The notes under the pieces: model-generated
The model's input: the letters and a program-made list of their open reading frames with translations, nothing else
Databases searched by the model: none
What the model was told of the DNA's origin: nothing
Translations under genes and position numbers: made by a program
Assembly (NCBI GenBank): GCA_949296705.1
Contig: CASFOW010000042.1
Span: 25,096-89,095, forward strand
From: an uncultured bacterium
GTDB lineage: Bacteria; Bacillota_I; Bacilli_A; RF39; UBA660
Reading direction: 5' to 3'
DNA: 64,000 bases
In this document: in pieces, positions 1 to 27,186 of the stretch
How the letters are laid out: every line of letters starts with the position of its first letter
Numbering within the stretch: the stretch's first letter is position 1

Positions 1-510
1 AGTTAAATTTCTAATTCCTAAGATGTAGGCTCCACCACTAGCGATATTATTAATTATCATTGTACTACCATCTGATGAACTAGGGACTGCTTGTTGCTGA
101 GTAAGATTGTTGCCGCCACTCGGACTACTATCTAACTGTTGTAAATGAGCGACGTCTCGATAAGTATTTGGATTATTTAATAGATAATTTACTCCATCTA
201 GATTAGTTGTGAAATTATAAATCCCCATTGAAATCATTTTAGATAGAAATTGAGGGGCTAAGCACTCAGGCGTATCAGGCAAAAGAATAATAATCTTTTC
301 CACATCTAAAGCCATAGACAGCTTTTGAAGATTTCTGATGTCATGATAGTCTTTCAATGCTGTTAAATCCAGAATCATTCTACCGAAGAAAAAATTACTA
401 AACATTTGAACTAATTCATCGGCATTAAATACCCCATGAATAGATTTGATTACTTCTATATCTAAATTGGCAAGCTCCGCTTGTCTTTCATTGGATATAA
501 TTACATTCAT
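1..510 (-). CDS. Partial CDS, running off the window start. Hypothetical protein with a receiver-like N-terminal region, possibly TadZ/CpaE-like.
   Basis: Minus-strand ORF starts at ATG 510 with RBS GGTGGTGAG 6 nt upstream and has no stop before position 1. It begins MNVIISNERQAELANLDIEVIKSIHGVFNADELVQMFS...EKIIILLPDTPE...GIYNF. The D/D/K spacing loosely resembles a degenerate receiver domain. No Walker A motif was seen in the available part. It is the last visible gene of the Tad-like operon. Confidence 0.3.
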   Translation of the reverse strand, partial: MNVIISNERQAELANLDIEVIKSIHGVFNADELVQMFSNFFFGRMILDLTALKDYHDIRNLQKLSMALDVEKIIILLPDTPECLAPQFLSKMISMGIYNFTTNLDGVNYLLNNPNTYRDVAHLQQLDSSPSGGNNLTQQQAVPSSSDGSTMIINNIASGGAYILGIRNLT

Positions 511-534
511 CTATTACTCACCACCATCCTGCCT

Positions 535-1056
535 TTAAGAATGCCTTGCATTTCTACATAATTCACTGTTATTTCCTGATGAATAAATGGTATCTGTCTC
601 CCCAGTTATCACTAAAAAATTCGCGGCAGCCGGAAAAATCCTATTGATAATTGGTATGTTTACATTAACAAAAGTAGCCACAGCATACTGAGCTCCTTTG
701 TAAGTCAAATTAGAATTATTAGTACCAGTCACATCAGCTAATTCGCATTTTACACAAAAGACAAACTTTTCGCCACTTTCTAAGGTCTGAACATATGGTT
801 CATACCCCATTCTACGACATTTATCTTCATAAATACTAGTAGAAGAAAAAGAGTAATTTAAGCGATTGGCGTAATCATCAATTTTGTCACTGGCACTAGG
901 CGTTAATCCCTCATATTGTTCAATGATTGTTATCAATTGGTTCTTCATATGAAAAGACTTTGTGTAGCTGACACTAAACATCAAAAGTCCTATCATTAAT
1001 ACTAAAAAAACAAATATAGCCTGAAAAGACAAAACACCACCTAATGCTTCTTTCAC
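535..1056 (-). CDS. TadE-like pseudopilin / minor pilin, paralog 1 (173 aa)
   Basis: N-terminus MKEALGG/VLSFQAIFVFLVLMIGLL has a short polar leader, Gly and a hydrophobic helix, like a class III prepilin. Size is typical of the TadE/TadF family. About 35% identity to the adjacent paralog with conserved Cys positions (C..GY, FCxKCE). Located in the Tad-like operon. Confidence 0.5.
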   Translation of the reverse strand: MKEALGGVLSFQAIFVFLVLMIGLLMFSVSYTKSFHMKNQLITIIEQYEGLTPSASDKIDDYANRLNYSFSSTSIYEDKCRRMGYEPYVQTLESGEKFVFCVKCELADVTGTNNSNLTYKGAQYAVATFVNVNIPIINRIFPAAANFLVITGETDTIYSSGNNSELCRNARHS

Positions 1057-1074
1057 GGTATCACCTACTTTACC

Positions 1075-1596
1075 CTATCTTCTCGAATTGCAGAACTCAC
1101 TTGCTTCTTTTGCATGGACATCAGAATAAATCAATGGTGTTTCTCCTGCTATTTTGAAAAAACTAGCGGTAAATGGCAAAATATTATTAACTAGTGGAAC
1201 ATCAAAAGTAACAAAAGTTACAATTGAATAATAGGCGGCTCTACTTCTATCATCATCATTGGGCCTACCTGTAATATCTGCATATTCACATTTGATACAA
1301 AAGCGAACTCCATTTCCATTTTCACTAGTTTTTCCATTATAGACATCATACCCCATTTGTTCGCAAACCGATTCATATTCAGCAGGTAAGAAATAATTCA
1401 TTCCACGAACAACGTCATTTATTTCATGACGTGCTTCTACTGACAATCCCTCATGCTTTTCAATAATATTACGTATTTCGTTTTTTACTCGAAAAGCTTT
1501 TGTATAATTGACAGAAAAAGCCAGTAAACAAGTAATGATTATCATCGCAACAACAATTGCCTGTAATACAAATACGCCACCTACTCCTTCTTTCAA
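1075..1596 (-). CDS. TadE-like pseudopilin / minor pilin, paralog 2 (173 aa)
   Basis: N-terminus MKEGVGG/VFVLQAIVVAMIIITCLL. Tandem paralog of 535..1056 with the same architecture and conserved cysteines. Confidence 0.5.
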   Translation of the reverse strand: MKEGVGGVFVLQAIVVAMIIITCLLAFSVNYTKAFRVKNEIRNIIEKHEGLSVEARHEINDVVRGMNYFLPAEYESVCEQMGYDVYNGKTSENGNGVRFCIKCEYADITGRPNDDDRSRAAYYSIVTFVTFDVPLVNNILPFTASFFKIAGETPLIYSDVHAKEASEFCNSRR

Positions 1597-1654
1597 ACTA
1601 CCACCGCTTTTCTTCTTTTATCTTATTTTTATTTACTATCTACTAGAGTAATGA

Positions 1655-1858
1655 CTAGCCACTAACACAACTTGTACCATTATAGTATTGCCCAGCTGGA
1701 CAGTTTACATCTTGACCGGCATTACCGCTAATTGTATTCCAAGTATCTGTAATCGTATTAGAAATAGTTGGCCACATTACCCAGAAAAAGGCAACAATCG
1801 CTCCTATCGCAATAATTGTTACAACGGTCATATTTAATTCACCAGTTGCTTCTTTCAT
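1655..1858 (-). CDS. Flp-family-like small pilin (67 aa)
   Basis: 67-aa protein MKEATG/ELNMTVVTIIAIGAIVAFFWVMW has a short leader, Gly and a single hydrophobic helix, with size typical of Flp pilins. It shares the MKEaxG leader with the two TadE-like proteins. It lies immediately downstream of tadC in the operon. The sequence does not fit the canonical G/xxxxEY motif. Confidence 0.45.
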   Translation of the reverse strand: MKEATGELNMTVVTIIAIGAIVAFFWVMWPTISNTITDTWNTISGNAGQDVNCPAGQYYNGTSCVSG

Positions 1859-1921
1859 AAATTATCTCCTCCTTATAATAATATTATAGCATAATTTTCA
1901 TTACCTGCATAGTTCTTTACG

Positions 1922-2707
1922 TTAAAGATTTGTAAACATGTAAATCATCGCTATTAGAATCAGAACCATAACACCAGCACCAGTCGCTACTAACATAACC
2001 ATAGTTTGTCCTTCCATATGCTCGATTCTTTCTTTGTATTTTTGATCTCTTGCCTTAGCTTGTAAATTAGATACTGTTCTAGAAAACATTAATAAACGTT
2101 CCTGTTTTCTTTCTTGGGAACCTAATCCTAAACGATATAGTAATCTCATCATTCTCATTGAATCACGAACTGGATACTGATTAGCAAAATCCATATAAGG
2201 CTGAATACTAGAATCGCCTGCATCAATTTTTGCAATCATTTCTCTAAGTCCTGGTTTAAATACATCCGGTGCTTCCGGAATTGATTTAGCTAGCGCAACT
2301 GGCACAGTATAGTGCTGTACTAAGATTTCTAATCCCTTTAAATAGTATGGCAACATGACATCAATTTCATGTAAGTGACGTTTATAGTATTTCTTTAAAT
2401 TTGTATATTCTATCTTATATACAAAGTAACCAACTAAAATCGATAACACAATATTAATTAATGATAATTCAGTTAAAAAAACAAAAAGAAAAATAACAAT
2501 AACTAAACCACCATTTTTTAATCGTTTGGCAAATATCTCATCTGGTGTTTTTTTATCCCCATAACGAGCAGCTACTAGAAACTCAAAATCATCTTCTTTT
2601 AATTTATCTAATAGCATCTTATTATCTTGAATAAACTTTTCACCATCAATATTTCGATTATATACTAAGATAAATACAAAAATTGCACCAACAATAAATA
2701 TTTCCAT
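1922..2707 (-). CDS. tadC: TadC-like pilus assembly membrane protein (T2SS-F domain)
   Basis: 261-aa polytopic membrane protein immediately downstream of a TadB-like gene with start/stop overlap at 2707. The order ATPase-TadB-TadC is canonical for Tad loci. Confidence 0.55.
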   Translation of the reverse strand: MEIFIVGAIFVFILVYNRNIDGEKFIQDNKMLLDKLKEDDFEFLVAARYGDKKTPDEIFAKRLKNGGLVIVIFLFVFLTELSLINIVLSILVGYFVYKIEYTNLKKYYKRHLHEIDVMLPYYLKGLEILVQHYTVPVALAKSIPEAPDVFKPGLREMIAKIDAGDSSIQPYMDFANQYPVRDSMRMMRLLYRLGLGSQERKQERLLMFSRTVSNLQAKARDQKYKERIEHMEGQTMVMLVATGAGVMVLILIAMIYMFTNL

Positions 2708-3600
2708 TATTCTTCACCCACATTCTCATTGTAAAACTTCTCACCCTTGAGTAGGAAGTAACTATTTACTAAGATAATACCGTGAAGAATTATCTTTACA
2801 AAGACATTATCTAACAATTGAATATAGGTATCTCTACCTAATAAATATTGAATTAGCATTACCATCAGATATAGCATAATTCCATATTTTAAGAATCCTT
2901 TATGAAAATTTGCTCTTTCCATACGGTCACGGTATACACTTTCTACTAGCATATCGATGTCTAGTTGCATGTTATCTAAAGATTCTCCAGAGTCTCTAGC
3001 TCCTTCTTTGGTAATTTGTAAAAATAATTGATGCATATTTTTAACAATATAATATGGATACTTGGTAGTCATAAATTCGATGGATTCATCGATAGATCCA
3101 TTCTGATAAGCTAGAGAAATCATTAAATCAACATCACTTAGTACAGGATCTTCTAAGACACCTGATGCAACAACACCTTCTAGAGCTTTTACGAAACTTT
3201 GTGTAGTTGCGAACTCCATAATTGTATTTGTCGTATAGATTTGAATTTGTTCAAAGATAAATTCGCTATAAACCCTTTTGCATCTTAGATAAGCAAGATA
3301 AGGAATCGTCATATCTAAGGCAATAATATAGATTACTGAAATCAATATATTATAGAAATATAGATAAGAAATAACTCCGGCAAAAATAGAAAAAGTTACT
3401 ACTTGAATCATATATTGTCTCGGAGTGTATTCTTGCCCTAAATCCTTTGTTTTCTGGCGAATAACTTTAAAGGAATACGGAGCAAAACGATTATACATGT
3501 TCGTTGCTTGTAACGTAATAAAGTGATAGACATTTTGTCCTTTATATTTACGGTAAAAAAGTATAAATAGCGCTATGGCTAATAGAATTAATAATTCCAC
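2707..3600 (-). CDS. tadB: TadB-like pilus assembly membrane protein (T2SS-F domain)
   Basis: 297-aa protein with N-terminal and C-terminal TM segments flanking a cytoplasmic helical domain. It directly follows the CpaF ATPase gene. Confidence 0.55.
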   Translation of the reverse strand: MELLILLAIALFILFYRKYKGQNVYHFITLQATNMYNRFAPYSFKVIRQKTKDLGQEYTPRQYMIQVVTFSIFAGVISYLYFYNILISVIYIIALDMTIPYLAYLRCKRVYSEFIFEQIQIYTTNTIMEFATTQSFVKALEGVVASGVLEDPVLSDVDLMISLAYQNGSIDESIEFMTTKYPYYIVKNMHQLFLQITKEGARDSGESLDNMQLDIDMLVESVYRDRMERANFHKGFLKYGIMLYLMVMLIQYLLGRDTYIQLLDNVFVKIILHGIILVNSYFLLKGEKFYNENVGEE

Positions 3601-3620
3601 TATTTCTCACCTCTTTTCAC

Positions 3621-5099
3621 TTAATTGTTGTTAAAATCCACGATGATTGGTTGAGTTTGATTCACTGTTGGATTTCCCCCTTGAGTTATACCACTACTAG
3701 TTGGTTGCAGTATAGCTTGTCCTAATGTCTGTGTTACTGGCTGTTGTTCGTGTGGTGGAGTTAAAGTTGTCGTTGAACTCTGGGAAGGAGTCGAAATCGG
3801 ATTAGGATTCGGTGTTGGAGCTACTGGTACATTGCCAACAGGATTAGAAACTGATGGTACTGGACTAGATACTGGTGTAATTGTTTCTTTTCTTTCCAAG
3901 GAAGCATTCACTGTCTCTGTTTGTTTGGATATATTATCTCCTGCGGTAGGAACTTTTACATTCTCTACCTTAGGAGATTCTAAATTTGTCGTTGGATTCT
4001 CCCCAATCACATCTTCCAATTTTATTCCCCCATCTTCTTCTTCCGCTCCTTCAAAAGTAGTTGATTCTAGTTCAACATTTTGTGCTAATAGTGAATCGAT
4101 CAAATGCTGACTAGGATTTTTCTTAATAATCTTTCCATTCATTAGTTTCTGATATAAAACATTGTAGACTGGTTTATTATTATCATCGATATAGAATTCC
4201 GTAATTTCATCAATTTCACGATGAAATTTTCCATATTTCTTACTATAGTAAGCTTTAATATGAACGCCTAATTGAACATAACGATAGATCGTACTTAAGA
4301 ATTGATCAACATCTAGTTCTGTTTCCATTAAAGAATACATACGATGTGGAATTGCACTTGCTTTATCTGAGTGGATTGTCGATAAAATATTATGTCCTGA
4401 AGAAATAGAGTTACGAACGGCACTTACAGCTTCGGCACTACGGACTTCTGACAAAAGAATCCATTTAGGGTTCTGTCTCATACAAGTAACTAATACATCA
4501 CTATAAGAAGCGATATTATTAGTTTTCATTGCGACAATATCACGATGTGGATAAATCTTATCTAAGTGTAATTCCAAGGTATCCTCAATCGTAATGATTT
4601 TTTCACTTTCTTTAGTATGGGATGCTAGATATTTGACAAATTCAGTTTTACCTGAACCTGTTTCTCCACAGACGATGATATTACAATGTCCATGAACGCA
4701 TTTAATTAAGAAATCATGAATATCTTTGGTTACATAATCTTCTTTTAATAACGTTTCTTCTTTTAATCGTATCTTAGCTGGTGTCTTACGAATAACTAAC
4801 GCAATTCCGTTAGTTGCAATTGATTCATGGACGAAATTCATACGTAACTCTGGACTTTCCGCATCAAGGAAAGGGCTAGCATTATTGAAAGTTGTCCCCA
4901 TAACGTTGGAACATTGAAAAGCTAACTTTTCTACTACACTATTATTAATGGCGGGATTTTCTACTCTAAGTGAACCTTGGGTTAAAGAACGAATCCAAAT
5001 TTGTCCATTATTCGTGTATGAGATATCGGTGATATCATCATTTTCGATATACTCTCTAAAAGCCCCAAAATCTAATTGTTCAAATAGGTTATCTTTCAT
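3621..5099 (-). CDS. cpaF: CpaF/TadA-family secretion ATPase with a C-terminal Pro/Thr/Ser-rich tail
   Basis: Walker A CGETGSGKTE and the family-typical segment VTCMRQNPKWILLSEVRSAEA, plus a His box. The core of about 350 aa is followed by about 130 aa of low complexity (PVSSPVPSVSNPVGNVPVAPTPNPNPISTPSQSSTTTLTPP...). Confidence 0.85.
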   Translation of the reverse strand: MKDNLFEQLDFGAFREYIENDDITDISYTNNGQIWIRSLTQGSLRVENPAINNSVVEKLAFQCSNVMGTTFNNASPFLDAESPELRMNFVHESIATNGIALVIRKTPAKIRLKEETLLKEDYVTKDIHDFLIKCVHGHCNIIVCGETGSGKTEFVKYLASHTKESEKIITIEDTLELHLDKIYPHRDIVAMKTNNIASYSDVLVTCMRQNPKWILLSEVRSAEAVSAVRNSISSGHNILSTIHSDKASAIPHRMYSLMETELDVDQFLSTIYRYVQLGVHIKAYYSKKYGKFHREIDEITEFYIDDNNKPVYNVLYQKLMNGKIIKKNPSQHLIDSLLAQNVELESTTFEGAEEEDGGIKLEDVIGENPTTNLESPKVENVKVPTAGDNISKQTETVNASLERKETITPVSSPVPSVSNPVGNVPVAPTPNPNPISTPSQSSTTTLTPPHEQQPVTQTLGQAILQPTSSGITQGGNPTVNQTQPIIVDFNNN

Positions 5100-5118
5100 A
5101 CTCTAGCTCCTCTTTTCT

Positions 5119-5958
5119 TTACTCTGTTGGTAATGGTGCGGGATTTTCTAAATCCAAATCAGTAAACTCAGTTACTTCGTTAATAAAGTCACGTAATGTT
5201 TCACTAGCAATACTTACCTCACCTGGTTCTTCTTTTAGTGATTCATTCGTTGGTACTGGGATAATAGCAACTTCATAAGTACGTAAATATCCAGCCTTTC
5301 TTAATAGAATATGATATTCTTCTGGTAAAGCGAAGATAATTTGTGATGGTGTTTTAACGTTTTCTAAGTCTTCGAATACATCATCACCATTTGAATCTAA
5401 TACCGCAAGAATTTTTACATTCTTTAATAGTTTACCAACCATAATTTTATCTTCAGTATCTGCGGTAATATTTTCTTCATCTACTTTATTGGTTGCTTTA
5501 ATATAGATATCAATATAGTTTCCAGGATAGATCTTGTTACCATAAGTTGTTTCCGTTGTAACGGCTAAGTTCATTAAGACATAATCATCTGGATAGTCAT
5601 ATAGTATTGAATCTGGCAACTCTGATTGGGTAACTACTGCTCTTTGATAGAATAAGCTACCTTGTGGGATTGTGCAATCTGCATTAACATAGTAATTAAT
5701 AATTTTACTAGTGTCAGTAATAACATCTCCCTGTACCATAGCCATTGGTACATCCACGATACCAACCATATCGCTAGTAATTCTTGTTCTAGAAGAAATA
5801 TCTACTAAGGCGTAAGGTACACTAGTTGGATTGGTTTTTTGACTAATTCTGTAATTGTAGAAAAAATACAAGACGACAATTGCGATAACAGTCAAGATTA
5901 TCGTAACTGTATTTTTGTTTGTTAAGAACTTCTTTACTCTGGTTCCTACTCCATTCAT
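5119..5958 (-). CDS. cpaB: CpaB/RcpC-like Flp pilus assembly protein
   Basis: N-terminal TM anchor (TVTIILTVIAIVVLYFFY) followed by a region resembling a SAF domain (ALVDISSRTRITSDMVGIVDVPMAMVQGDVI). It sits immediately upstream of cpaF, as in Tad loci. Confidence 0.55.
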   Translation of the reverse strand: MNGVGTRVKKFLTNKNTVTIILTVIAIVVLYFFYNYRISQKTNPTSVPYALVDISSRTRITSDMVGIVDVPMAMVQGDVITDTSKIINYYVNADCTIPQGSLFYQRAVVTQSELPDSILYDYPDDYVLMNLAVTTETTYGNKIYPGNYIDIYIKATNKVDEENITADTEDKIMVGKLLKNVKILAVLDSNGDDVFEDLENVKTPSQIIFALPEEYHILLRKAGYLRTYEVAIIPVPTNESLKEEPGEVSIASETLRDFINEVTEFTDLDLENPAPLPTE

Positions 5959-5970
5959 TATTTTCCCCTC

Positions 5971-6399
5971 CTACTCAACTTCTTCAATCTTTCTTTTTTC
6001 ATTATATTTTGTTTCTAATATACCATCAATCGTCGTTACGATATCGAAATCTTCGCCAACAAAAGAGGCAACTGTTGTCGTTCCTACTTGGATACTTGCT
6101 TTTGGTGGTGTTTCATTGAAGTCAATAATCTTGATTCGATAGGTAGAAGATGCAGAAACGCTGTCTGCAAATCTTCTAATAAAACTCTCTAAGAATTTTT
6201 CTCTATCTACTCGTATAATTCCACCGGATGTACGATAATATCCCCAATCGACGCCGTCAATCATTGCTGCTTCAGTTGTTTCTTTCAATAAGTAATAATC
6301 TAATTCGTTACCCGATTGATAGTTTTGAATTAAATTTACACAGGCTAGAGTTAATACTCCTAAGATTATAATTCCTGTAATGATCATTCCTTTACTCAT
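5971..6399 (-). CDS. Small membrane-anchored protein, possible minor pilin/pseudopilin
   Basis: 142 aa, N-terminus MSKG/MIITGIIILGVLTLA with one hydrophobic helix then a soluble domain. Context is between the cysteine-rich protein and cpaB. Confidence 0.35.
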   Translation of the reverse strand: MSKGMIITGIIILGVLTLACVNLIQNYQSGNELDYYLLKETTEAAMIDGVDWGYYRTSGGIIRVDREKFLESFIRRFADSVSASSTYRIKIIDFNETPPKASIQVGTTTVASFVGEDFDIVTTIDGILETKYNEKRKIEEVE

Positions 6400-6411
6400 A
6401 ACTCTCTCCTT

Positions 6412-9402
6412 TTAATCATCGTCACAATCGCCACCGTAGGCATTGTTGCATATGGCAATTTGTTTTCGTGACTGCGCATTATAACCACTTGTATAAGTAA
6501 CATTTCCTGTGTCGTCTAAGAAATTACTTGTACATACTTCACGACCACCTATCGTTGAACAACTCATATCATAGTCCAGATAATTTGTATATCCATCGCC
6601 GTTAAAGTCTCCTACATTCTTGTTGTACTGTCGTATTCGCATGATTTGTTCTGTCGTCAGGATGATGTCGTAATCTACTTCATTTGTATCACTATAGATT
6701 TCATTTCCCTTATATTCGATATCTTCAGTTAACTCAATTGGGTTGATCTTATATCCTAATAGATTATAGATTCGACTATCGGTTGGGATTGCTCCATTTG
6801 TCCAATTCCAACGTGGATTTCTATCATTAGGGAAGACATCGACTAAATCAATCGGTCTATAGATAAAGGTTATTCCAGAATAATCAATCGGTGGTGTATC
6901 TCCGCCAGGGCAATCTGGTCCTGTACAAGTCTCTGGACAATTTGGCCCGGTACATGGCTGATCACAATCTGGGCAATTAGATCCATCTACTTGGGTTGGA
7001 TCATCTGGGTCAATGAATAAATTATTATATACTCCATAGAAGCAATTGATTTGATCACTATAGTCACGAGTTCCAATTCCATTTACATTAACAGTTATAG
7101 TTGCTTTTTTATTGCCCTGACTGAAATATTGGTCATAGCCAATTAAACTAACTCTCTGATTATAATCTAGTGGGATGGATACATTTGTATTTCTGCTCTT
7201 TGGATCCGTATAGTATCTTCTTCCGCCAGCATAGAATTTCTTAGCATCAAAATTAATATTGCCTAAACGTCCGGTATTGGCATCAAATGCTTCATAGCCT
7301 CTGCCCGCTTTGTAAGCAGCTAGACCGGTTGTTTTATTTACATAAGCTTCTGGTAGTTGTAAATCTACTGTTATGGATTTTTCGTTTTTCGTACAGTAAC
7401 TTACTGTTATATTGAATGGAGTAGGTGAATCTCCTAATTGTACTGTTCTTGTACCACCTGGACAGCTTACACCACTATGACTTACATTTTCAATAATATC
7501 GGCATCATTTGAACTTACTGTATAAGTATAAGCCTGATTACCTTTCTTTAAATAAGAATCTGAAATATTAATCGTGTAAGTACCTGTCTTTTGTTGTTCT
7601 TCAGCGATGGATTTAAAGTTCACATATTCATTATTTGAGGCAATCAATTGATTACCGTATAACTCATCTGGATTATCTACACATCCTGCAGGACCTACTG
7701 TTTCAGTAATTGTGCAGATTCCATTATGATTATCACAATATGTTGAGAATGTCATTCCAACATCACCACAGTGTTCAGTATGTACACTACAGGTATACAT
7801 TCCTTTATAATTACCTGCACCGTCTACTGAATCATGACTGAAGCTGCAGCGACTATCCGAGGTAGAAGTAATTACATCGATAATACTCGTCCCAGTTCTT
7901 TCAATAGAATGCTCAAGAAATGTAGTTGGACGTTCTAGTTTGGCATCTAAAAGAGATAAATCTCTAGGGTTATTTTTGCCATACACTGTATTGTAGCAAG
8001 AATTAATACAACTTTGTGTATATTTACCACCATCACACGAATTTACGCAAGCGTCAAAATCGTCATTTGGACCGCTAGTAGGATCTTCACCAGGATCGTC
8101 ACCTTTAGTGACACGACCGCTTCTTTCATCATAGCTGCAGACTGTGTGACAACTGTAAACGCATTTAGGTTTCTTAATAACTTGTTGTTTATGAACTATT
8201 GAACATTGCCTTGTTGCTTGAAATGTTCCTCCATAAGTGAATCCTGCTCCTGCATAGACGAGTTTAGCTCCAACTGGATAAATGTCATATTTTTCCCAAC
8301 AGGTAAGTCCCCAATAGGTACCCGATTGACTATAGACTATTTGATATCCTTGGTGTCGTTCTGTATTACATTGAAAACCATTGCTCGTATCAAGAATTGA
8401 ATATCCATCCTCTGGAGCACTTCCAACTAAGGCTTGCAGATTTTGATAAGCTTTTTGAATATCTTCTCTTAATGTCAGATATTGACTGTAAGTAATTTTA
8501 TCTTCATAACAAACTCCTGCATAGTTAAGTTTTAAAGAGGAAATTAAAGTTTGCAAGTAAGCAGGGTCTGGGGAATAAACTACTTTGCTATCTACTAGAT
8601 ATTGAATATAATCTTCTATTGTTTTACACCCGTAAGAATTATTTGTATCCCTAGAAGTGACTGCTGGGTTATCAAGATTAATACTATCTGCGGTATTGAT
8701 AACGACTTCTACGCTTGCAATATAAGTATTATTACAAGGTGAAGAAGGATCATCAATATAATATTCTAAAGTTATTTTATTGACATCAATCGAACCGGTT
8801 GCAGCATTATATTTTGAAGGTTCAAGATTTCTCAATACATAATAGTTCCCTTCTTTTGACAAAAAATTGCTGTAATCAGTTGAAAATTGTGAAGTGGTAT
8901 TTTTTTCTTCGCCTGGGGCTACATACCGTATCTTTGCGGTGCCACCAAATAAATCTTTTATCTTAAGGGTAATTAAACCATTCGATAAATTTAATTCCAT
9001 TTCAATATTTTTGTATTGATTGGTTTCATCATCAACAGCTAGCACATTATTTAATTCGTATCTTTTATCTTCAGCTGTTGTAGGACAAGTCTGAATACTA
9101 CCATAACTATCTGTATAGCAATTATATCCCTTTTCTACCACATTAAGTTTATATGGCGTTAAATCAGTCGTACCGACTGGATAAGTAACATAACCACTCA
9201 TTATCGCCGCTTCATCGATTTTATCGAGGGTTACGGCAGTTGATACACTTGGATCCCAACTTACTTGGTAGTATCGCTTGTTGGAAAGACAAAAGTTTTT
9301 ATTTTGTAATCCTGTAGCTGCTTCTGTTTTTTGTGGTAATAAAATCACGCAGATTACAATCAAGAAAAAGAAAAGTATTTTTGATTTTCTCATTATGTTC
9401 AC
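6412..9402 (-). CDS. Large secreted cysteine-rich protein (996 aa), candidate pilus-associated adhesin
   Basis: Sec-type signal peptide MNIMRKSKILFFFLIVICVILLPQKTEA/A. Many cysteines, including the cluster NCPDCDQPCTGPNCPETCTGPDCPGG at nt ~6900-7000. No LPxTG-like sorting signal at the C-terminus (ends ...GGDCDDD). Confidence 0.7.
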   Translation of the reverse strand: MNIMRKSKILFFFLIVICVILLPQKTEAATGLQNKNFCLSNKRYYQVSWDPSVSTAVTLDKIDEAAIMSGYVTYPVGTTDLTPYKLNVVEKGYNCYTDSYGSIQTCPTTAEDKRYELNNVLAVDDETNQYKNIEMELNLSNGLITLKIKDLFGGTAKIRYVAPGEEKNTTSQFSTDYSNFLSKEGNYYVLRNLEPSKYNAATGSIDVNKITLEYYIDDPSSPCNNTYIASVEVVINTADSINLDNPAVTSRDTNNSYGCKTIEDYIQYLVDSKVVYSPDPAYLQTLISSLKLNYAGVCYEDKITYSQYLTLREDIQKAYQNLQALVGSAPEDGYSILDTSNGFQCNTERHQGYQIVYSQSGTYWGLTCWEKYDIYPVGAKLVYAGAGFTYGGTFQATRQCSIVHKQQVIKKPKCVYSCHTVCSYDERSGRVTKGDDPGEDPTSGPNDDFDACVNSCDGGKYTQSCINSCYNTVYGKNNPRDLSLLDAKLERPTTFLEHSIERTGTSIIDVITSTSDSRCSFSHDSVDGAGNYKGMYTCSVHTEHCGDVGMTFSTYCDNHNGICTITETVGPAGCVDNPDELYGNQLIASNNEYVNFKSIAEEQQKTGTYTINISDSYLKKGNQAYTYTVSSNDADIIENVSHSGVSCPGGTRTVQLGDSPTPFNITVSYCTKNEKSITVDLQLPEAYVNKTTGLAAYKAGRGYEAFDANTGRLGNINFDAKKFYAGGRRYYTDPKSRNTNVSIPLDYNQRVSLIGYDQYFSQGNKKATITVNVNGIGTRDYSDQINCFYGVYNNLFIDPDDPTQVDGSNCPDCDQPCTGPNCPETCTGPDCPGGDTPPIDYSGITFIYRPIDLVDVFPNDRNPRWNWTNGAIPTDSRIYNLLGYKINPIELTEDIEYKGNEIYSDTNEVDYDIILTTEQIMRIRQYNKNVGDFNGDGYTNYLDYDMSCSTIGGREVCTSNFLDDTGNVTYTSGYNAQSRKQIAICNNAYGGDCDDD

Positions 9403-9459
9403 CTCGCTACTATACTATATATTTCATTATAACATATTTTAATTTTTTGACATAGTTTT

Positions 9460-10263
9460 TTATCCAATTTCTGATGCAGCACCTTCTGCTAACATGTTAA
9501 AGTTTTTACTTTTCGTTACCTTATACTTCTCAATTTCTTCGTCATCTCTCACTTTACGTGCATCGATTACAAATTGTTGTTTCTCAAAAGCGCCAAAATA
9601 TCTAGTACATGTTTTAACAGCAATCAATTCATCATTTTCATTTACATCAATATCATAATCATAGATTGAATTATCGCGCACACTAGCAATATAATCTTTG
9701 ATTTGTTCAGGATTACTCATGCTTCTGTCATTATCTCCTGCATAATCATAGAATCCAATCGCATAAATTTTATAAAGTTCTTCTTTTCCTTCTTTGGTAT
9801 AACTGATATACAAATTATCCTGCGCAAAATCATAATAGGTAAAAGCCATCAAGCCTTCAAAATAATTTAACATGCTCATATCACGAATCGGTGTACTGGA
9901 CACATTAATAATATTATGACCATGTATAACTTCTCTAGTTTCATCGGTATCGTATTCCGAGCTACGCCACGCATAATCAGATATACCATCATCACCATAA
10001 TCAAAGCTATTCAAAACCGCCATATCAATGTTTGTACCTTGTACTTGAATCCAACCAACAGTATAAAAATCTTCATATTTAAATTCTAGGGAATCCTGAG
10101 TTCGATCTTTAAAATTCAAAGTGATACTTGTATCAAACTTACTACCCGTTATACTGAAATAAATAATGGCTATAATTAATACGATAATAACCAAAATGCT
10201 TATTGTAATTAACATTCTCTTTTTTAGATCTAGTCTCTTGTTTTTTGACTTTCTCTTTCTCAT
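9460..10263 (-). CDS. srtB: Class B sortase-family transpeptidase
   Basis: N-terminal signal-anchor. Sequence FYTVGWIQVQGTNIDMAVLNS matches SrtB DIVGWIKLSGTSLNYPVLQG. His motif VIHGHN, Cys motif LIAVKTCTRY (TLxTC-like) and Arg motif FVIDARKV give the His/Cys/Arg catalytic triad in the canonical order. Confidence 0.7.
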   Translation of the reverse strand: MRKRKSKNKRLDLKKRMLITISILVIIVLIIAIIYFSITGSKFDTSITLNFKDRTQDSLEFKYEDFYTVGWIQVQGTNIDMAVLNSFDYGDDGISDYAWRSSEYDTDETREVIHGHNIINVSSTPIRDMSMLNYFEGLMAFTYYDFAQDNLYISYTKEGKEELYKIYAIGFYDYAGDNDRSMSNPEQIKDYIASVRDNSIYDYDIDVNENDELIAVKTCTRYFGAFEKQQFVIDARKVRDDEEIEKYKVTKSKNFNMLAEGAASEIG

Positions 10264-10278
10264 TAGTTATCACTTCCT

Positions 10279-12120
10279 TTACTGCAATAAATATGGATCG
10301 TTCATTGTACCTTTTCCTGATCTTATTTTTAAATTGCCATTCACATGCATCACTACTTTAACTGAAAATTCAGGGAAATTATCATTTGTTAATTCAAATG
10401 ACATTCCTGTTACTACATTCATCATGATTACCATATTTTCTCCTGTAGAACGATCTAAGAATAGTTGAATACGTTGTCCACTATAAGGACTACCACTTAC
10501 ACTAGCAAACAAATCAATCGTTGATGCCAACATCAGTTTTGCTTCTACTTTTTCTGTTTCTAAATCATTATATTTCGTGCTAGGACTATTTGTAATAATC
10601 TCATATTCATAAGGAATAATATTACTGTCATCTAAGTATTCAATATAATCTTCATTAAGTATGTATCCTGGATTATTTTCATCAGTTAAGTTATATTGAT
10701 AATTTGGAATATCAGAAGTAGAGACAGTTAGAACTCTGTTATCACTAATATTTAGTAGCGGATGAGCGCCGATTACTTTAACACTACCGTCTTTCTCTTG
10801 ACCAATAATTCTAAATAATTGTCCTGAATAAGAAATATATTCACCAACCAACCTGTTTTTTATTTCCTCGTGTTCTTCTCCGTACTGATAATCATTTAAT
10901 TTATAAGGATTTTCTTTCGTTCCATCCCCTTCATAAATATAAAGACCATTTTTTATCGTAATGACCGGCTTAATTGGCAAAATATTCAAATTGCTCGTTA
11001 GACTAGCAGTTCTACGCTCAGTAATTATTAAATTTTCATTCTCACGCTTATTGGCAAGCAAATAATAATAATTATTCCAATAATTCATCGAACTGTAACT
11101 ATTTTCTACTGTCTTATAGTATTCGTCTAGGCTAGGTAATCCCACTTTAGCCGTTACTGTCTCACTACAGCTACTATTAATATCATCTACACTATTTACT
11201 GCGCCAACACAATAGGTAGTATCGACTAAATATTTATCTGGATTTGTTAAACTATTGTAGAAAACATTATTTAACCAAGCTTCGACATTAGAATCCTTAT
11301 ATCCAGTACTATCATATCTAAGATTACTGACGACATCTTCACTGATTAATTTTACGTTACCATTTTCATCAACATTGATAATACGCCATAACATACCAGA
11401 AAATTGAACATAGTTGTCTTCTACTTGTCCTTTATAGTAATTGCTTTCATCGGTTTCACTAGCTACTGTTTCTGAAAAATTTCTAGCTACTGTTACCGTT
11501 CTCGTCACTTTGGTTTGATTATGAGTACTATCTTTTACTTTATAGATTACTTCATAACTACCTACTTTACTAGTATCTACTTTACTGGTATCCACAGTTA
11601 CCTTAGAAATATCTATCTCTCCATCTACATTATCAATAACTTTTTTAACCCCTGGATCTTCATAAGTACTATTGTGGCTAATGATCATATTTTCTTCGCC
11701 ATTTAACTCGATTTTTGGTCCTTCGTGGTCGATATCGGATTCATATTTGCCACATTTTAGATAAGTATAATACTGATATTCTCCATCTTCGGTTTGTACT
11801 ACTCTAACCCAGCTTGAAGTATCACATAATTTTTTGGTCTTAGGTACATATAGAGCCTCTACTCTATTTTCTAAAAACATCTTTTCTAGTGAGATTTCTC
11901 TACTTTCTCCCTTACCTGGTAATAATTCTTGACGATACTCATAGTAACGTTTAACCGCATCTAGGAAAATTTGTTCTTCTTGTTTGAAAATTTCAATTTT
12001 TGATAGCCAGAATACCCATAGAAGATATCCAAGCAGGAATAAGAATAAACTAAGCGCAATCAATATTCCTACCGCTTTTAAGTATTTATTTCTTAGAAAC
12101 CAAGCTTTTACTTTTTCCAT
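10279..12120 (-). CDS. Signal-anchored large extracytoplasmic protein (613 aa), function unknown
   Basis: N-terminal TM segment AVGILIALSLFLFLLGYLLWVFWL followed by about 560 aa of predicted extracellular sequence. No recognisable catalytic motifs. Second gene of the operon. Confidence 0.6.
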   Translation of the reverse strand: MEKVKAWFLRNKYLKAVGILIALSLFLFLLGYLLWVFWLSKIEIFKQEEQIFLDAVKRYYEYRQELLPGKGESREISLEKMFLENRVEALYVPKTKKLCDTSSWVRVVQTEDGEYQYYTYLKCGKYESDIDHEGPKIELNGEENMIISHNSTYEDPGVKKVIDNVDGEIDISKVTVDTSKVDTSKVGSYEVIYKVKDSTHNQTKVTRTVTVARNFSETVASETDESNYYKGQVEDNYVQFSGMLWRIINVDENGNVKLISEDVVSNLRYDSTGYKDSNVEAWLNNVFYNSLTNPDKYLVDTTYCVGAVNSVDDINSSCSETVTAKVGLPSLDEYYKTVENSYSSMNYWNNYYYLLANKRENENLIITERRTASLTSNLNILPIKPVITIKNGLYIYEGDGTKENPYKLNDYQYGEEHEEIKNRLVGEYISYSGQLFRIIGQEKDGSVKVIGAHPLLNISDNRVLTVSTSDIPNYQYNLTDENNPGYILNEDYIEYLDDSNIIPYEYEIITNSPSTKYNDLETEKVEAKLMLASTIDLFASVSGSPYSGQRIQLFLDRSTGENMVIMMNVVTGMSFELTNDNFPEFSVKVVMHVNGNLKIRSGKGTMNDPYLLQ

Positions 12121-12123
12121 AAT

Positions 12124-13683
12124 CTATTCTCCTTTTAATTGATAAAAATATTGATAAGTTCTAACTGTAAAGTATAGTTCTATATTAGTCGCATTTACCA
12201 TCTCACTAGGTGCTGCGATAAATAAATGATCTCCACGATAATTCGTTAGTAGATAAGAAATATTCATCTCTTTTGTCTCTCCATTTATGGTATAGCGTAT
12301 CTTTCCATAAGTTTTTAAAAAATCGAGAAAATCCTTTTTGCTTCCTTCTTTTAATTTATATTTTGCGTAGAAAATCACTTGATTTTCTTTACTTTCTAGG
12401 GTCGCCTCATAGATAGGACAAGTTTTAGCATTACATTGTTCATAACGATAATCCATCGCATTCGTTAACGCAAAATTAGATAGGCTAAATGTCCATTCTT
12501 TCTCTAAATTGATAGGAACAGTTAACTCTTCGCCGAGAGAGACATTGGCTTTTTCAATAAATTTACTGATATCTCTTACCTGAACCCGAATTCTTTTGGC
12601 GGCATCATTAAATTTACCAGTTCGATAAGTTAATAAAAAGTTACTGTTTTCTTTTGGGGCATCAATCTCAAAAACAAATAAAATATTTTCACTACTAGAA
12701 GCTTTAATTTTCTTACCACTACTATAAAGCGTACCAATATCATTAAAATATAAATTGAATCTTTCAGAAGGGGTATACTGTTGATTATCTATATATAAGA
12801 AGAAATATTCATTACTGATTGGAACATCACTAGTTTGATCATTGGTAATTTTTACATCCAAGATAAAATAGTATTTACTTTTTGCAATTTGATTTCCGGT
12901 ATAATCACGATTAGTGATATAGGCATTCTCTATTTGGAATTTAAGTCCATTTGCGGATACTGCTTCTCCCATACTGTATACTTTATTGACTACAAAAGCA
13001 TAGTGATAGACATTAAATGAAGCTAATAACACAACCAAAACAATTAAAATACTAATACTAAACTTGTGTTCTAAAAAGGTATATTTTATATAACGAAGAT
13101 TTCTTCTAAAGGCTCTAATATAACGATCTTTATCAAAAGTAATCTCTACTTCTACTTCTTCACGATCTTCGTCGTTAATTTCTGCGAATTCTTTGTCTTC
13201 TCCAAATCCAAATCTCTTTAAGTCTAGACCTATGGAACGGATAAGTAATAATAAAATAGCTGGATAATAGGGAATAGTGACAATAAAAGATAAATCTCGA
13301 ATCGTTAACGCAGATACTAAATCAAACTCCTGTGTTACCGTTATCGTAAAGTAATAATAATGATAAATAAAGAAGGCTAACGTGATAATTGATACACCTA
13401 AGATAAATACATAGGAAATAAATGGTTTATCCTTATATTTTAGTAAATAAGCTAAGATTGCGGAAATAATAGTAATCAGTACAATAGCGCCAATAGAAAA
13501 AATATTTACATAGTTACTTATGGAATCTAATTGACTACTATAAATACCGGTTGCGATATAATCTTTTATGAATTGATATAATTCTAATTCTTTCCATAAA
13601 ACAAAAATAACTAGAGCGAGTAAGACTATATTGATTTTCTTAAAGTTACGAATTAAAAAGGCATATGGCTTTCTTAGAATCAC
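12124..13683 (-). CDS. Polytopic membrane protein with a large C-terminal extracytoplasmic domain (519 aa), function unknown
   Basis: GTG start with RBS AGGAGGGG. About 4 TM helices at the N-terminus, an acidic cytoplasmic loop (EINDEDREEVEVE), a further TM, then a soluble domain of about 300 aa. First gene of the operon. Confidence 0.6.
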   Translation of the reverse strand: MILRKPYAFLIRNFKKINIVLLALVIFVLWKELELYQFIKDYIATGIYSSQLDSISNYVNIFSIGAIVLITIISAILAYLLKYKDKPFISYVFILGVSIITLAFFIYHYYYFTITVTQEFDLVSALTIRDLSFIVTIPYYPAILLLLIRSIGLDLKRFGFGEDKEFAEINDEDREEVEVEITFDKDRYIRAFRRNLRYIKYTFLEHKFSISILIVLVVLLASFNVYHYAFVVNKVYSMGEAVSANGLKFQIENAYITNRDYTGNQIAKSKYYFILDVKITNDQTSDVPISNEYFFLYIDNQQYTPSERFNLYFNDIGTLYSSGKKIKASSSENILFVFEIDAPKENSNFLLTYRTGKFNDAAKRIRVQVRDISKFIEKANVSLGEELTVPINLEKEWTFSLSNFALTNAMDYRYEQCNAKTCPIYEATLESKENQVIFYAKYKLKEGSKKDFLDFLKTYGKIRYTINGETKEMNISYLLTNYRGDHLFIAAPSEMVNATNIELYFTVRTYQYFYQLKGE

Positions 13684-13795
13684 GTTTTTCCCCTCCTACT
13701 CTTCTATTCTTTTTCATTATAACCTATTTTGAATAAAAATAAAAGATTTTTTCCGCGCTTTGTGATATACTTTTTAATTATGAGAGGTAGATGTT
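13684..13795. promoter_or_regulatory. Divergent promoter region between the Tad-like operon (minus) and the thioredoxin-like lipoprotein gene (plus)
   Basis: Plus strand carries an extended -10 TGaTATACT about 30 nt upstream of ATG 13796 with RBS GAGAGGT. Minus strand carries TTTTAT-N17-TATAAT upstream of RBS AGGAGGGG and the GTG start at 13683. Confidence 0.45.
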
Positions 13796-14269
13796 ATGAA
13801 AAAATTTAGTTTTATTATTATCTTAGTTGCTCTTTTATTGGTTAGTGGGTGTTCTAAGAGTTATTTAAAAGAAATTTCTTATGATGAATACAAAAAACTA
13901 TTAGAAGATGAGGAAACTTTTATTTTGGAGGTAATGAGTGATGATTGTACGGCTTGTAAAGATTTTCGTCCGAAATTAAAAGATGTTGCTTCTAGTTACA
14001 AAATTGAAGTAAAGTATATCAATATTGATAAGTTAACTGCTGATCAATACGATGAACTTGCTGTTTCAGCAACGCCTACTGTGATTTTTTATATAGATGG
14101 TGAAGAGGAAACAACAGCCGCAAGAATTGTTGGATCAGTAAAAAGAGAAAAGATTATTTCTAAGTTTAAGGCTAGTGGGTTTATTGAAGATGAGGCTTCA
14201 GATCAATCTAATGAAAAAGATAACTCTGTTGAACAAGACGAGCAACAAGAGAAAAACACTTCAAAATAA
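13796..14269 (+). CDS. Thioredoxin-fold lipoprotein with a CxxC motif
   Basis: Lipobox LLVSGC. CTAC (CxxC) motif in DDCTACKDF, with a Trx-like fold pattern (ATPTVIFYIDGEE). Acidic C-terminal tail. Divergently transcribed from the Tad-like operon. Confidence 0.7.
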   Translation: MKKFSFIIILVALLLVSGCSKSYLKEISYDEYKKLLEDEETFILEVMSDDCTACKDFRPKLKDVASSYKIEVKYINIDKLTADQYDELAVSATPTVIFYIDGEEETTAARIVGSVKREKIISKFKASGFIEDEASDQSNEKDNSVEQDEQQEKNTSK

Positions 14270-16295: not shown

Positions 16296-16838
16296 TCAAT
16301 TCACATCCATTATACGTTGTTGATGTTGATCTAGAAACTCAACTGCTTTTTCTTTTGATAACGTTCCGCCAGTACTGACTGTTAAAACATCTAATACTTT
16401 ACCATCTTGAAAAACAACTAATGAAGGATATCCAAGAAGATCAGTATCATAGAACTTATTAAACTCTTTAATGAATTTTGTTATATTAGATTCTTTAGTT
16501 AGGTTTAGATAGGTAATGCTATTTTCTAGTTGTCTTTCTGTAACAACATTTTGAAATTCTTCTTCAAATTTACGACAATTTCGATCATTTACAACCCCGA
16601 CATAAAGAATGGCATTTTCATTTTCTCTAATGTAGTTATATACTTCTTCGGTATTAATTTCTTGTACTAATACATTTCCAATAATTGGGGTATTCAATTG
16701 ATAGTTAATACCACTTAAATACCAATTTCTAAGTAAGAGAATAGCAAATATCGTTACAACAAAAATTAAAGCGATTTTGATGTAGCCACCTATGTTATTT
16801 TTATTATTACTACTCTTATTTTTAGTATTTTTTTTCAT
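16296..16838 (-). CDS. Membrane-anchored thioredoxin-fold-like protein without CxxC
   Basis: Lys/Asn-rich N-terminus, then a TM segment and a soluble domain ending ...PSLVVFQDGKVLDV. Single Cys only. Confidence 0.4.
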   Translation of the reverse strand: MKKNTKNKSSNNKNNIGGYIKIALIFVVTIFAILLLRNWYLSGINYQLNTPIIGNVLVQEINTEEVYNYIRENENAILYVGVVNDRNCRKFEEEFQNVVTERQLENSITYLNLTKESNITKFIKEFNKFYDTDLLGYPSLVVFQDGKVLDVLTVSTGGTLSKEKAVEFLDQHQQRIMDVN

Positions 16839-19426: not shown

Positions 19427-19711
19427 TCATGGTAGTCCAATTTTCACTAGGATTACATCTTCGCCAATTTTGGTAATGCTATGCCATTTTATTTCAGTAT
19501 CCACGCTATTACTACGGTTAAAGAAATGAAAAAAGTTTTTGTTAGGTTCGATGATAAAGGATACGATATTGCCCGTTTCTTCGTCTATTTTTACATCAAT
19601 AATATTTCCTACATTTCTACCATCAGTAATATTAACAATATCTTTACTTTGTAAATCCGATAATCTCATATTACCACCTAACAAAGTATATGAAAAAGAG
19701 ACTTTGTTCAT
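19427..19711 (-). CDS. ymxH: YlmC/YmxH-family sporulation protein (PRC barrel)
   Basis: MRLSDLQSKDIVNITDGRNVGNIIDVKIDEETGNIVSFII is the typical YlmC/YmxH sequence. The track ORF start may be too long; the likely true start is the internal Met (MRLSDL). Confidence 0.75.
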   Translation of the reverse strand: MNKVSFSYTLLGGNMRLSDLQSKDIVNITDGRNVGNIIDVKIDEETGNIVSFIIEPNKNFFHFFNRSNSVDTEIKWHSITKIGEDVILVKIGLP

Positions 19712-21117: not shown

Positions 21118-21162
21118 AAAAAAATCTCCTTTCGTATTCATTTTGAAACAAAAGAAAGATTT

Positions 21163-26892: not shown

Positions 26893-27186
26893 TAAGTAAA
26901 AGACTAGTTCGCATCCAACACGTATTCAGATACGTATGGGACGAAACTAGTCTTCCGCGGTGCCACCCAATTTATCATAAACATTTCTGTTTGATTATGA
27001 TCCCTTTCGATTCTATTAAATCTAGTAATAAGATAACGGATTACTTCCGACTTACACTACTCTTTTGATTTCGCATAAGCAACTCCAAAGTGTTCTTCAT
27101 ATTGTTTTTATTGTTAGCTTCCACCATACCTAACTCGCTAGAATAAAAAAATCAATATTACTTTTCTTTATCTCAGTCGTTGTAGA
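26893..27186 (-). promoter_or_regulatory. T-box riboswitch leader, probable Asn (AAC) specifier, controlling the ybaK-like/DUF1653/asnS operon
   Basis: Minus strand carries the T-box sequence AAUUGGGUGGCACCGCGG (plus 26955..26973), followed by the terminator helix AAGACUAGUUUCG...CGAACUAGUCUUUU. A candidate specifier GAAGAACAC lies in the upstream stem I region. Promoter TTGACA-N17-TATATT sits at about 27190-27225. Confidence 0.6.

Follow-up and report, generated by a model that had tools for sequence, protein, structure and literature searches.

A chromosomal operon of RF39-like Bacilli that joins a Tad-type filament assembly module to a monoderm type IV secretion system

Introduction

Whether a cluster of pilus-like genes in an uncultured bacterium encodes a pilus of its own or one part of a larger machine is the question raised by the locus described here. 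The locus lies on the minus strand of a 64,000-nucleotide stretch of DNA (the window: GenBank assembly GCA_949296705.1, contig CASFOW010000042.1, positions 25,096 to 89,095 of the forward strand) from an uncultured bacterium of the RF39 lineage of the Bacilli, and it had first been read, from the letters alone, as a monoderm variant of the Tad/Flp pilus operon (the original prediction). Here, we report that window positions 1 to 13683 are the promoter-proximal half of one chromosomal operon of ~27 kb and ~22 genes, which is composed of three blocks, i.e., exported and envelope proteins, a Tad-type filament assembly module, and a monoderm type IV secretion system (T4SS). The Tad-type module is present as predicted, but it is not stand-alone, the operon continuing into a Gram-positive T4SS; the earlier reading was half right because this T4SS, which gives the locus its likely meaning, lies beyond position 1 and outside the window.

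The first block holds two proteins with immunoglobulin (Ig)-like domains, of 519 and 613 amino acids (aa), a sortase B anchored in the membrane, and a secreted, Cys-rich protein of 996 aa. The second holds a DUF5411 pilin-like protein, CpaB, an ATPase of the CpaF/VirB11 family, and a platform protein of the GspF fold with its presumed partner; to these are added a short pilin, larger pilin-like proteins in one or two copies, and the TadZ-position protein. The parts are of known kinds, Tad-type filament machines and monoderm T4SSs of the pLS20 class. Our literature search found no description of their combination, i.e., of one operon with CpaB, a TadZ-position gene, sortase B, lineage-specific Cys-rich proteins, and a T4SS that is fixed in the chromosome of an entire uncultured gut lineage, no relaxase having been found nearby; the original prediction likewise named no described system for its gene set. 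We lean, though not strongly, toward reading the locus as a chromosomally fixed T4SS of the pLS20 class in which the Tad-like module and the fast-evolving surface proteins make the cell contact.

Results and Discussion

Layout of the operon and its continuation into a T4SS

The minus strand of the window carries 12 complete open reading frames (ORFs) and one that runs off position 1 (Table 1), and the coordinates and the tight packing originally proposed for these 13 genes hold, the intergenic gaps ranging from -1 to 63 bp. The first gene has a GTG start at 13683, with AGGAGG 7 nt and TATAAT ~35 nt upstream (13690-13722), and the divergent intergenic region upstream of this start is 112 bp; a consensus scan gave no convincing internal terminator on the minus strand of the operon. 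For brevity, B and C denote the platform protein and the second membrane protein, E1 and E2 the two 173-aa pilin-like proteins, and Z the 335-aa TadZ-position protein; homologous loci are numbered with an L.

The continuation beyond position 1 is given by L081, whose bases 1-11056 are identical to those of the window (0 mismatches) and which extends 9.5 kb further. T4SS genes lie there directly downstream of Z, on the same strand and with small gaps, in the order 112-aa protein with two transmembrane (TM) helices, 487-aa exported protein, TrbL/VirB6-like protein, 112-aa VirB3-like protein, split VirB4, and cell-wall hydrolase. The first 112-aa protein is VirB2-like, with a weak match to the VirB2-type T4SS_pilin family (Pfam, 5.9e-5), and the VirB6-like protein matches TrbL_4 (1.5e-8). 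The split VirB4 consists of a TraC-like 182-aa protein and a P-loop_TraG protein of 595 aa, and the hydrolase has SpoIID and NlpC/P60 domains in L081, and SpoIID together with NlpC/P60 or M15 (Peptidase_M15_4) across loci. The end of the operon was seen in close relatives. In L087, which has a VirB4 of 97% identity, the last operon genes encode a 284-aa protein and VirD4 (T4SS-DNA_transf, 4.3e-62), after which come the genes of a rhodanese and BipA; L172-L175 have the same arrangement including VirD4, with ProRS further on. VirD4 was present in 38 of the 42 long metagenome loci anchored on VirB4, and in all 42 the Tad-like and the T4SS halves are contiguous.

The exported protein of 449-487 aa in the T4SS half (L081 12054-13517; L001 16212-17561) ends in a two-TM segment with a weak T4SS_pilin match (E 0.007-0.02; orthologues scanned in L001 and L087), and it has the look of a VirB2-like anchor to which a large ectodomain has been joined. 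In some close relatives, a transposase of the IS1595 family stands between the rhodanese gene and bipA, right after the downstream end of the locus (13053-14108 in both L172 and L173, minus strand).

Table 1. Genes of the operon in the window and its divergent neighbor, listed from the promoter inward
Feature	Position	Strand	Basis
519-aa polytopic membrane protein, first operon gene	12124..13683	-	ORF, Pfam DUF4352, TM scan
613-aa surface protein	10279..12120	-	Pfam Bact_surface_Ig-like and DUF6273
267-aa membrane-anchored class B sortase homologue	9460..10263	-	TIGR03064, SrtB-structure profile match
993-996-aa secreted Cys-rich protein	6412..9402	-	Sec signal peptide, 36 Cys
142-aa DUF5411 protein	5971..6399	-	Pfam DUF5411
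279-aa CpaB/RcpC-type protein	5119..5958	-	RcpC, TIGR03177, hhalign
492-aa secretion ATPase, CpaF/VirB11/FlaI superfamily	3621..5099	-	T2SSE
297-aa platform protein B, TadB/PilC/GspF type	2707..3600	-	
261-aa polytopic membrane protein C, TadC position	1922..2707	-	TM scan, pLS20 gene 39 homology
67-aa short pilin candidate	1655..1858	-	leader and hydrophobic helix, orthologue alignment
Two 173-aa paralogous pilin-like proteins	1075..1596 and 535..1056	-	leader, TM helix, motif
N-terminal 169 aa of 335-aa TadZ-position protein	1..507	-	gene position
Divergent thioredoxin-fold lipoprotein	13796..14269	+	Thioredoxin, TraF, TrbB models

ATPase, CpaB, and platform proteins of the Tad-type module

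By its sequence, the motor of the module is a secretion ATPase of the CpaF/VirB11/FlaI superfamily (Pfam T2SSE, 1.2e-26). Its best NCBIfam match is VirB11 (TIGR02788, 4.8e-34), followed by the TadA family conjugal transfer-associated ATPase (1.1e-27), both far below the cut-offs of these models, and among solved structures it stands at about equal distance from FlaI (3.5e-18), CpaF (1.1e-17), and VirB11 HP0525 (2e-16). In a collection of plasmids, the "VirB11-like" proteins of pLS20/pXO2-type plasmids matched at E 1e-30 to 3e-42, as against ~1e-16 to 1e-20 for the bona fide CpaF proteins sampled (Ralstonia, Sulfitobacter, and Sphingobium), and the nearest plasmid matches (pLS20 family, Enterococcus faecium pl6, pXO2, pXO1, and Bacillus thuringiensis plasmids) are all Gram-positive and conjugative. 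The name CpaF given originally fits at the level of the CpaF/VirB11/FlaI superfamily; the protein is closer to the plasmid proteins than to the sampled CpaF. The ATPase has a C-terminal tail of ~140 aa that is rich in Pro, Thr, Ser, and Gln and of low complexity (residues ~350-492; 3624-4052, minus strand); the length of this tail varies widely, orthologues having 374 to 752 aa in total.

The CpaB/RcpC-like protein was recognized correctly in the first reading. It has an N-terminal TM helix and SAF/RcpC domains, and hhalign aligned it with proteobacterial CpaB at 94.8% probability (P = 5e-8), although the HMM (hidden Markov model) matches, TIGR03177 at 6e-8 and RcpC at 1.7e-5, are below the curated cut-offs.

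Neither B nor C matched T2SSF by sequence in Pfam and NCBIfam scans of single sequences and of 140 orthologues (platform, pilin-like, and TadZ-position proteins together), whereas a remote homologue did so at 2.3e-5. Structural modeling of B, the one platform protein folded, gives it the GspF fold. Protein C, whose start overlaps the preceding gene by 1 base, is similar to B in size and TM layout (TM scan) and, standing in the TadC position, is presumed to be its partner. When B and C were compared with four proteobacterial TadB/TadC proteins by hhalign, the results were not significant (P = 0.11 and 0.03), and orthologue profiles of B, C, Z, E1/E2, and the DUF5411 protein found no match among PDB sequences. 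The TadB/TadC pair first named at this place can be kept for the fold of B and the size and TM layout of C, but not for T2SSF membership by sequence. On the question of whether the HMMs point to a T4SS or competence (ComG) family instead of Tad, the answer is divided: VirB11 is the best NCBIfam match of the ATPase, while the platform protein and CpaB are like those of Tad systems and type IV pili.

Pilin-like and TadZ-position proteins

The labels "Flp-like," "TadE-like," and "TadZ/receiver" of the original prediction did not find support from HMMs; they go back to size, a leader followed by a helix, and gene position. The 67-aa pilin candidate has an almost invariant leader, MK-x-A-T/S-G-E-L, followed by a hydrophobic helix of ~22 aa, and its orthologues have 49-83 aa. 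It resembles Flp only in its size and single hydrophobic helix: Flp_Fap had no match in the protein or in 34 orthologues, and the leader is without Glu5-Tyr6. In E1 and E2, an M-x4-GG leader is followed by a single TM helix and an ectodomain, a pilin-like architecture, and both the Y-x-K-A-F-R-x-K-N motif and a pair of Cys residues are conserved. They are paralogues (42% identical), and when the window was compared with L003-L080, most relatives had a single copy and some distant ones again two. No TadE model matched them, hhalign against two TadE proteins gave P = 0.48, and there is a weak similarity to pLS20 gene 40 and DUF4320 (hhalign P = 0.002). The DUF5411 protein (Pfam, 4.3e-46), in which an MxKG leader and a single TM helix precede a small ectodomain, is probably a minor-pilin-like component.

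Only the N-terminal half of Z is in the window; its full length of 335 aa was seen in L001 and L081. The C-terminal half has a degenerate Walker A motif and a weak, 40-column match to the P-loop region of ParA (hhalign P = 0.002). Z had no match in Pfam, NCBIfam, or PDB, Response_reg and ParA included (scans of the single sequence and of orthologues in Pfam and NCBIfam), and hhalign against TadZ was not significant.

It was originally stated that neither a prepilin peptidase nor a secretin is encoded here, and this was confirmed: the 64-kb window contains no secretin and no polytopic GxGD protein, and the gene lists of L081, the L087-type, and the L172-type loci contain no peptidase candidate. 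A 252-aa protein elsewhere in the window (21163-21921, minus strand) has a prepilin-like N-terminus, MRELNNKGF-AASVVLYGASTIIIMVLLLIL, and no family match. It could be another type IV pilin-like protein; if so, a prepilin peptidase elsewhere in the genome is implied.

Exported and surface proteins

By its sequence, the third gene encodes a membrane-anchored class B sortase homologue, as was proposed at first: TIGR03064 matched at 1.9e-8, and a profile of 36 orthologues matched the solved SrtB structures at 2.5e-22. His116, Thr218-Cys219, and Arg221 are invariant in 36/36 orthologues; the canonical Arg is R236, kept in 28 of the 36 and replaced by Lys in six; R221 is an extra invariant Arg. A motif scan (xPxT[GNASD] or NPx[TS]x, with a hydrophobic tail and a basic end) found no sortase substrate in the window, L081, or L087.

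The 996-aa protein is fast-evolving; it carries a Sec signal peptide and contains 36 Cys residues, many of them invariant. Only 60 homologues were detectable among 5.8 billion proteins, and they are confined to the RF39-like lineage; it has no Pfam domain and no match to the PXO2_28_C model. Its structural model is predicted to be beta-rich and multidomain, matching only generic Ig-like sandwiches. We regard it as a candidate adhesin or contact protein.

The 519-aa protein has ~5 N-terminal TM helices and an extracellular, Ig-like DUF4352 domain (Pfam, 3.6e-5), and the 613-aa protein has an N-terminal TM anchor followed by Bact_surface_Ig-like (8e-18) and DUF6273 (1.5e-9) domains. The former is collinear in 68 and the latter present in 69 of 80 loci, each with a median identity of 32%. 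The sortase gene and those of the 996-, 519-, and 613-aa proteins had been considered insertions into, or additions to, a Tad operon; they are conserved, collinear members of it instead. DUF6273 recurs in distant relatives, in a ~400-aa protein encoded after VirD4 (L110 17436-18650 and similar loci).

The divergent lipoprotein gene upstream of the operon, found at this place in 24 of 80 loci, encodes a thioredoxin fold (Thioredoxin 1.4e-11), with weak matches to two models of F-plasmid pilin-assembly disulfide isomerases, TraF at 4.2e-5 and TrbB at 6.7e-7. A second extracytoplasmic thioredoxin-fold protein near the operon is encoded at 16296-16838 (minus strand); it is membrane-anchored and PedC/BrcD-like. 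The two may serve the Cys-rich exported proteins, the lipoprotein as an accessory disulfide oxidoreductase.

Distribution and chromosomal inheritance

Relatives of the ATPase were found in at least 537 species-representative genomes, a count that is a lower bound. In the sample used for collinearity and identity, i.e., the 80 best loci from species-level genomes, the 13 window genes are collinear in 80/80 wherever the contig reaches. The machine parts are well conserved (median identity 74% for the ATPase, 71% for B, 62% for C, and 61% for the pilin), and the exported parts (the 996-, 613-, and 519-aa proteins, E1/E2, and the sortase) are at 32-38%. Among the titles of the homologous loci are uncultured Bacilli, "Tenericutes," Mycoplasma sp. 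CAG:877, and Candidatus Scybalousia, which we take to denote an RF39-like gut lineage.

The locus is probably fixed in the chromosome and mainly vertically inherited, because its flanks are conserved housekeeping genes, it co-diverges with its neighbors, and neither relaxase or integrase genes nor a flanking repeat was found. The flanking genes encode rhodanese, BipA, ProRS, RmuC, a DedA-type protein, SpoVA proteins, and tRNA synthetases. The divergence of the locus genes tracks that of neighboring genes (rho 0.77 and 0.50; n = 24 each, the points not being independent). No relaxase or integrase family was matched by any of 90 ORFs flanking VirB4 and VirD4 in ~28 diverse loci, nor was one found in L087 or L172, and no att-like direct repeat of at least 12 bases is common to both flanks. 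The G+C content per 1-kb window is 0.30-0.37 in the locus and 0.29-0.33 in the adjoining 6 kb.

Comparison with known systems

The closest known relatives are the conjugation operons of Gram-positive plasmids, with pLS20 (genes 34-54) and pl6 of E. faecium E745 as examples and pXO2/pAW63-like plasmids carrying the same operon type. Family HMMs found the pLS20 ATPase (gene 37) at 2.5e-55, C (gene 39) at 2.6e-6, VirB4 at 5.5e-40, and VirD4 at 5.5e-69; hhalign paired C with gene 39 at 85% probability and gave weaker, collinear signals for B with gene 38, E1 with gene 40, and the DUF5411 protein with gene 36 (P = 0.005). The shared order is adhesin, small TM protein, ATPase, two membrane proteins, and small TM proteins (one annotated DUF4320 and one TrbC/VirB2 in the plasmids), then VirD4, VirB6, a VirB3-like protein (DUF5592), VirB4, and hydrolase, except that VirD4 is at the operon end in the RF39 locus and in mid-operon in the plasmids. 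The RF39 locus adds CpaB, the TadZ-position protein, sortase B, and the Cys-rich 996-aa, 519-aa, and 613-aa proteins. The plasmids also have a MobL relaxase and a replication module, whereas the RF39 locus lies in the chromosome, with none detected nearby. In the literature, pLS20 gene 37 is a putative VirB11, genes 38-45 are unknown, and pilus homologues are stated to be absent (PMC8557374); Gram-positive T4SSs are said to be universally without VirB11 homologues in a 2025 review (PMC12857230), and without major-pilin (virB2) genes, depending on surface adhesins (PMC12102498).

With Tad/Flp systems (type IVc; Aggregatibacter, Caulobacter, and monoderm versions such as that of TANB77, PMC11680825), the locus shares the secretion ATPase, the GspF-fold platform protein, CpaB, and a pilin of very small size beside larger pilin-like ones, as well as a gene that is ParA-like or in the TadZ position, and it has no secretin, as expected of a monoderm. 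It differs in that its pilin is without the Flp G/XXXXEY motif and a Flp_Fap match, in that nothing matches TadE, in having no TadV peptidase in the locus, in an ATPase that does not stand nearer to CpaF than to FlaI or VirB11, and in the fusion of the module to a T4SS. A stand-alone form of the module does exist in L169, where a large PXO2_28_C protein is encoded together with DUF5411, a ParA-like protein, small proteins, and homologues of CpaB (2.1e-38), the ATPase (9.2e-60), B (9e-18), and C (2.6e-18), the DUF5411 gene standing beside those of CpaB and the ATPase; no T4SS lies within 10 kb. The predicted "secretion-related" CpaF/PilC/DUF5411/internalin-like operon of Roseburia, Ruminococcus, and Eubacterium (Miller, Stern and Burstein 2022, PMC9523054; a computational prediction) is similar to L169 and to our locus in that DUF5411 adjoins the ATPase and platform genes and a large surface protein is encoded upstream; it differs in having 8-9 genes and being described without T4SS genes. 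The large protein upstream of DUF5411 in L169 (3330-6311) carries PXO2_28_C, which is named after a gene of Bacillus anthracis pXO2.

Two further comparisons concern the partnership of T4SSs and pili. The MPF_FATA-like T4SS of Patescibacteria is likewise of the monoderm type, chromosomally fixed in small-genome uncultured bacteria, with VirB2-like (PF18895) pilin genes and usually without a relaxase, which suggests co-option (PMC12102498); the lineage is another one, RF39 belonging to the Bacilli, and type IV pili are encoded separately there and in one operon with the T4SS here. In IncI R64, where a Dot/Icm-like T4SS is combined with the PilV thin type IVb pilus, and in PAPI-1, a pilus machine and a T4SS cooperate in cell contacts (PMC12857230), but these are diderm systems with separate clusters, type IVb rather than Tad-like pili, and a relaxase of their own.

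Proposed function and its alternatives

In the scheme that we lean toward, the ATPase, acting on the B/C platform, would polymerize the small pilin together with its larger pilin-like companions, giving a short filament or piston that CpaB would scaffold and the TadZ-position protein would position. The filament would cross the thick wall and present the fast-evolving surface proteins to a target cell, after which the T4SS (VirB4 and VirD4 motors, VirB6 channel, and hydrolase) would move a substrate chosen by VirD4 across; maturation or anchoring of the exported Cys-rich parts would fall to the sortase and the two thioredoxin-fold proteins encoded nearby. The apparent vertical inheritance of the locus and the lack of a relaxase among the genes searched make co-option from conjugation probable; the machine would now serve some other transfer that depends on contact, moving protein or DNA into neighboring cells or taking it up from them.

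Several points weigh against this scheme. The function is drawn from homology and gene order, being known here from genes alone, and family models matched neither the pilin-like proteins nor the TadZ-like protein nor the second platform protein. The window and the locus parts examined lack a prepilin peptidase gene, which leaves the processing of the leaders conjectural. VirD4 and the downstream end of the operon were seen only in relatives that are 97-98% identical, not on the contig itself; the co-divergence statistics come from related, non-independent genomes; and the relaxase search covered the locus and its flanks, while a relaxase could lie elsewhere in the genome. A VirB2-like gene is present, so the extracellular structure could be VirB2-based and not Tad-based. 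The plasmid analogue gives no functional precedent, since published work on pLS20 describes no pilus and leaves its genes 38-45 as unknowns (PMC8557374).

A working conjugation system, i.e., an old integrative element or a chromosomal transfer apparatus whose relaxase and oriT are elsewhere in the genome, seems unlikely to us. The VirD4 coupling protein would fit it, as would the conjugative plasmids on which the closest relatives of the ATPase, VirB4, and VirD4 reside, and relaxases can be encoded apart from mating-pair genes (cases in PMC12102498). However, neither a relaxase nor an integrase nor an att-like repeat was found in or beside the locus among ~28 diverse relatives, the chromosomal neighbors are conserved and co-diverge with the locus, and the G+C content of the locus is close to that of the adjoining DNA.

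Somewhat less probable still is a stand-alone monoderm Tad adhesion pilus, with a Cys-rich tip adhesin and sortase anchoring, to which the T4SS would be a separate downstream neighbor. The same module without a T4SS in L169, the predicted operon of Roseburia, Ruminococcus, and Eubacterium (PMC9523054), and a Tad-like cluster in the uncultured gut order TANB77 (PMC11680825) all speak for such a pilus; the contiguity of the halves in every one of the 42 long loci, on one strand and with small gaps, the same fusion in pLS20, pl6, and pXO2-type plasmids, and the lack of a sortase substrate in the locus speak against it.

We give little credence to a DNA-uptake (competence) machine, in which DNA would be caught by a retractile filament of the Tad-like kind and then brought in through T4SS parts, in the manner of ComB or Ced. 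Tad/Flp pili do support transformation elsewhere, e.g., in Micrococcus luteus or Liberibacter (PMC4322843, PMC8513845), the importers ComB and Ced are T4SS-derived (PMC12857230), and RF39 is an uncultured clade with reduced genomes (PMC11680825). The RF39 locus, however, keeps VirD4, the receptor dedicated to substrate secretion that ComB is without (PMC12857230), its gene lists contain no ComEC- or ComEA-like gene, and the best ComGA match of the ATPase is 3e-21 as compared with 4.8e-34 for VirB11. A ComG competence pilus was rejected, the ComGA match being much weaker than those to VirB11 or TadA, and so was the SpoIIIA sporulation channel, for which SpoIIIAA reached only E = 0.05 and the gene set differs.

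Returning to the contact-dependent T4SS, its strongest form would be that RF39-like Bacilli have a vertically inherited, domesticated T4SS, in which a Tad-type filament replaces or joins the VirB2 pilus, as their main device of contact-dependent exchange, with no plasmid transfer; we offer this as speculation and would not expect it to hold in full. If it did, the system would deliver or acquire protein, DNA, or nutrients, in analogy to the T4SS required for the growth of epibiotic Patescibacteria on their hosts (PMC12857230), and it would point to a partner-dependent lifestyle of an abundant uncultured order. The "VirB11" block of pLS20/pXO2-type plasmids would then be an unrecognized type IV filament machine in Gram-positive conjugation. 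An ATPase, a GspF-fold platform, CpaB, and pilin-like proteins in one operon with a monoderm T4SS, as found in the locus and its plasmid relatives taken together, suggest a class of filament-assisted Gram-positive T4SSs. A chromosomal locus with no relaxase found beside it, present in at least 537 species of a small-genome gut lineage, is a candidate key to how these bacteria interact with their neighbors, and pLS20 genes 36-41 in Bacillus subtilis offer a tractable model for the module.

Host features

The host DNA has ~31% G+C. A peptidoglycan wall was judged by eye from ORFs resembling Ddl, MurI, and a PASTA-type kinase. The bacterium had also been called an endospore-former, which is plausible given a SigG match of 370 bits (cut-off 372) and a YlmC/YmxH match above its cut-off (19427-19711 and 20341-21141, both minus strand) together with the SpoVAC, SpoVAD, and SpoVAEB genes beside the locus in several relatives. 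These sporulation genes occur in bacteria whose lineage goes under "Tenericutes" or "Mycoplasma" in several of the public records. A phage or plasmid origin of the window was rejected in view of tRNAs, a T-box leader, ORFs resembling PolC, DnaE, Ddl, and MurI (by eye), and SigG. The T-box leader (26934-27183, minus strand; 130.8 bits) lies among several tRNA genes and is an ordinary one, unrelated to the operon.

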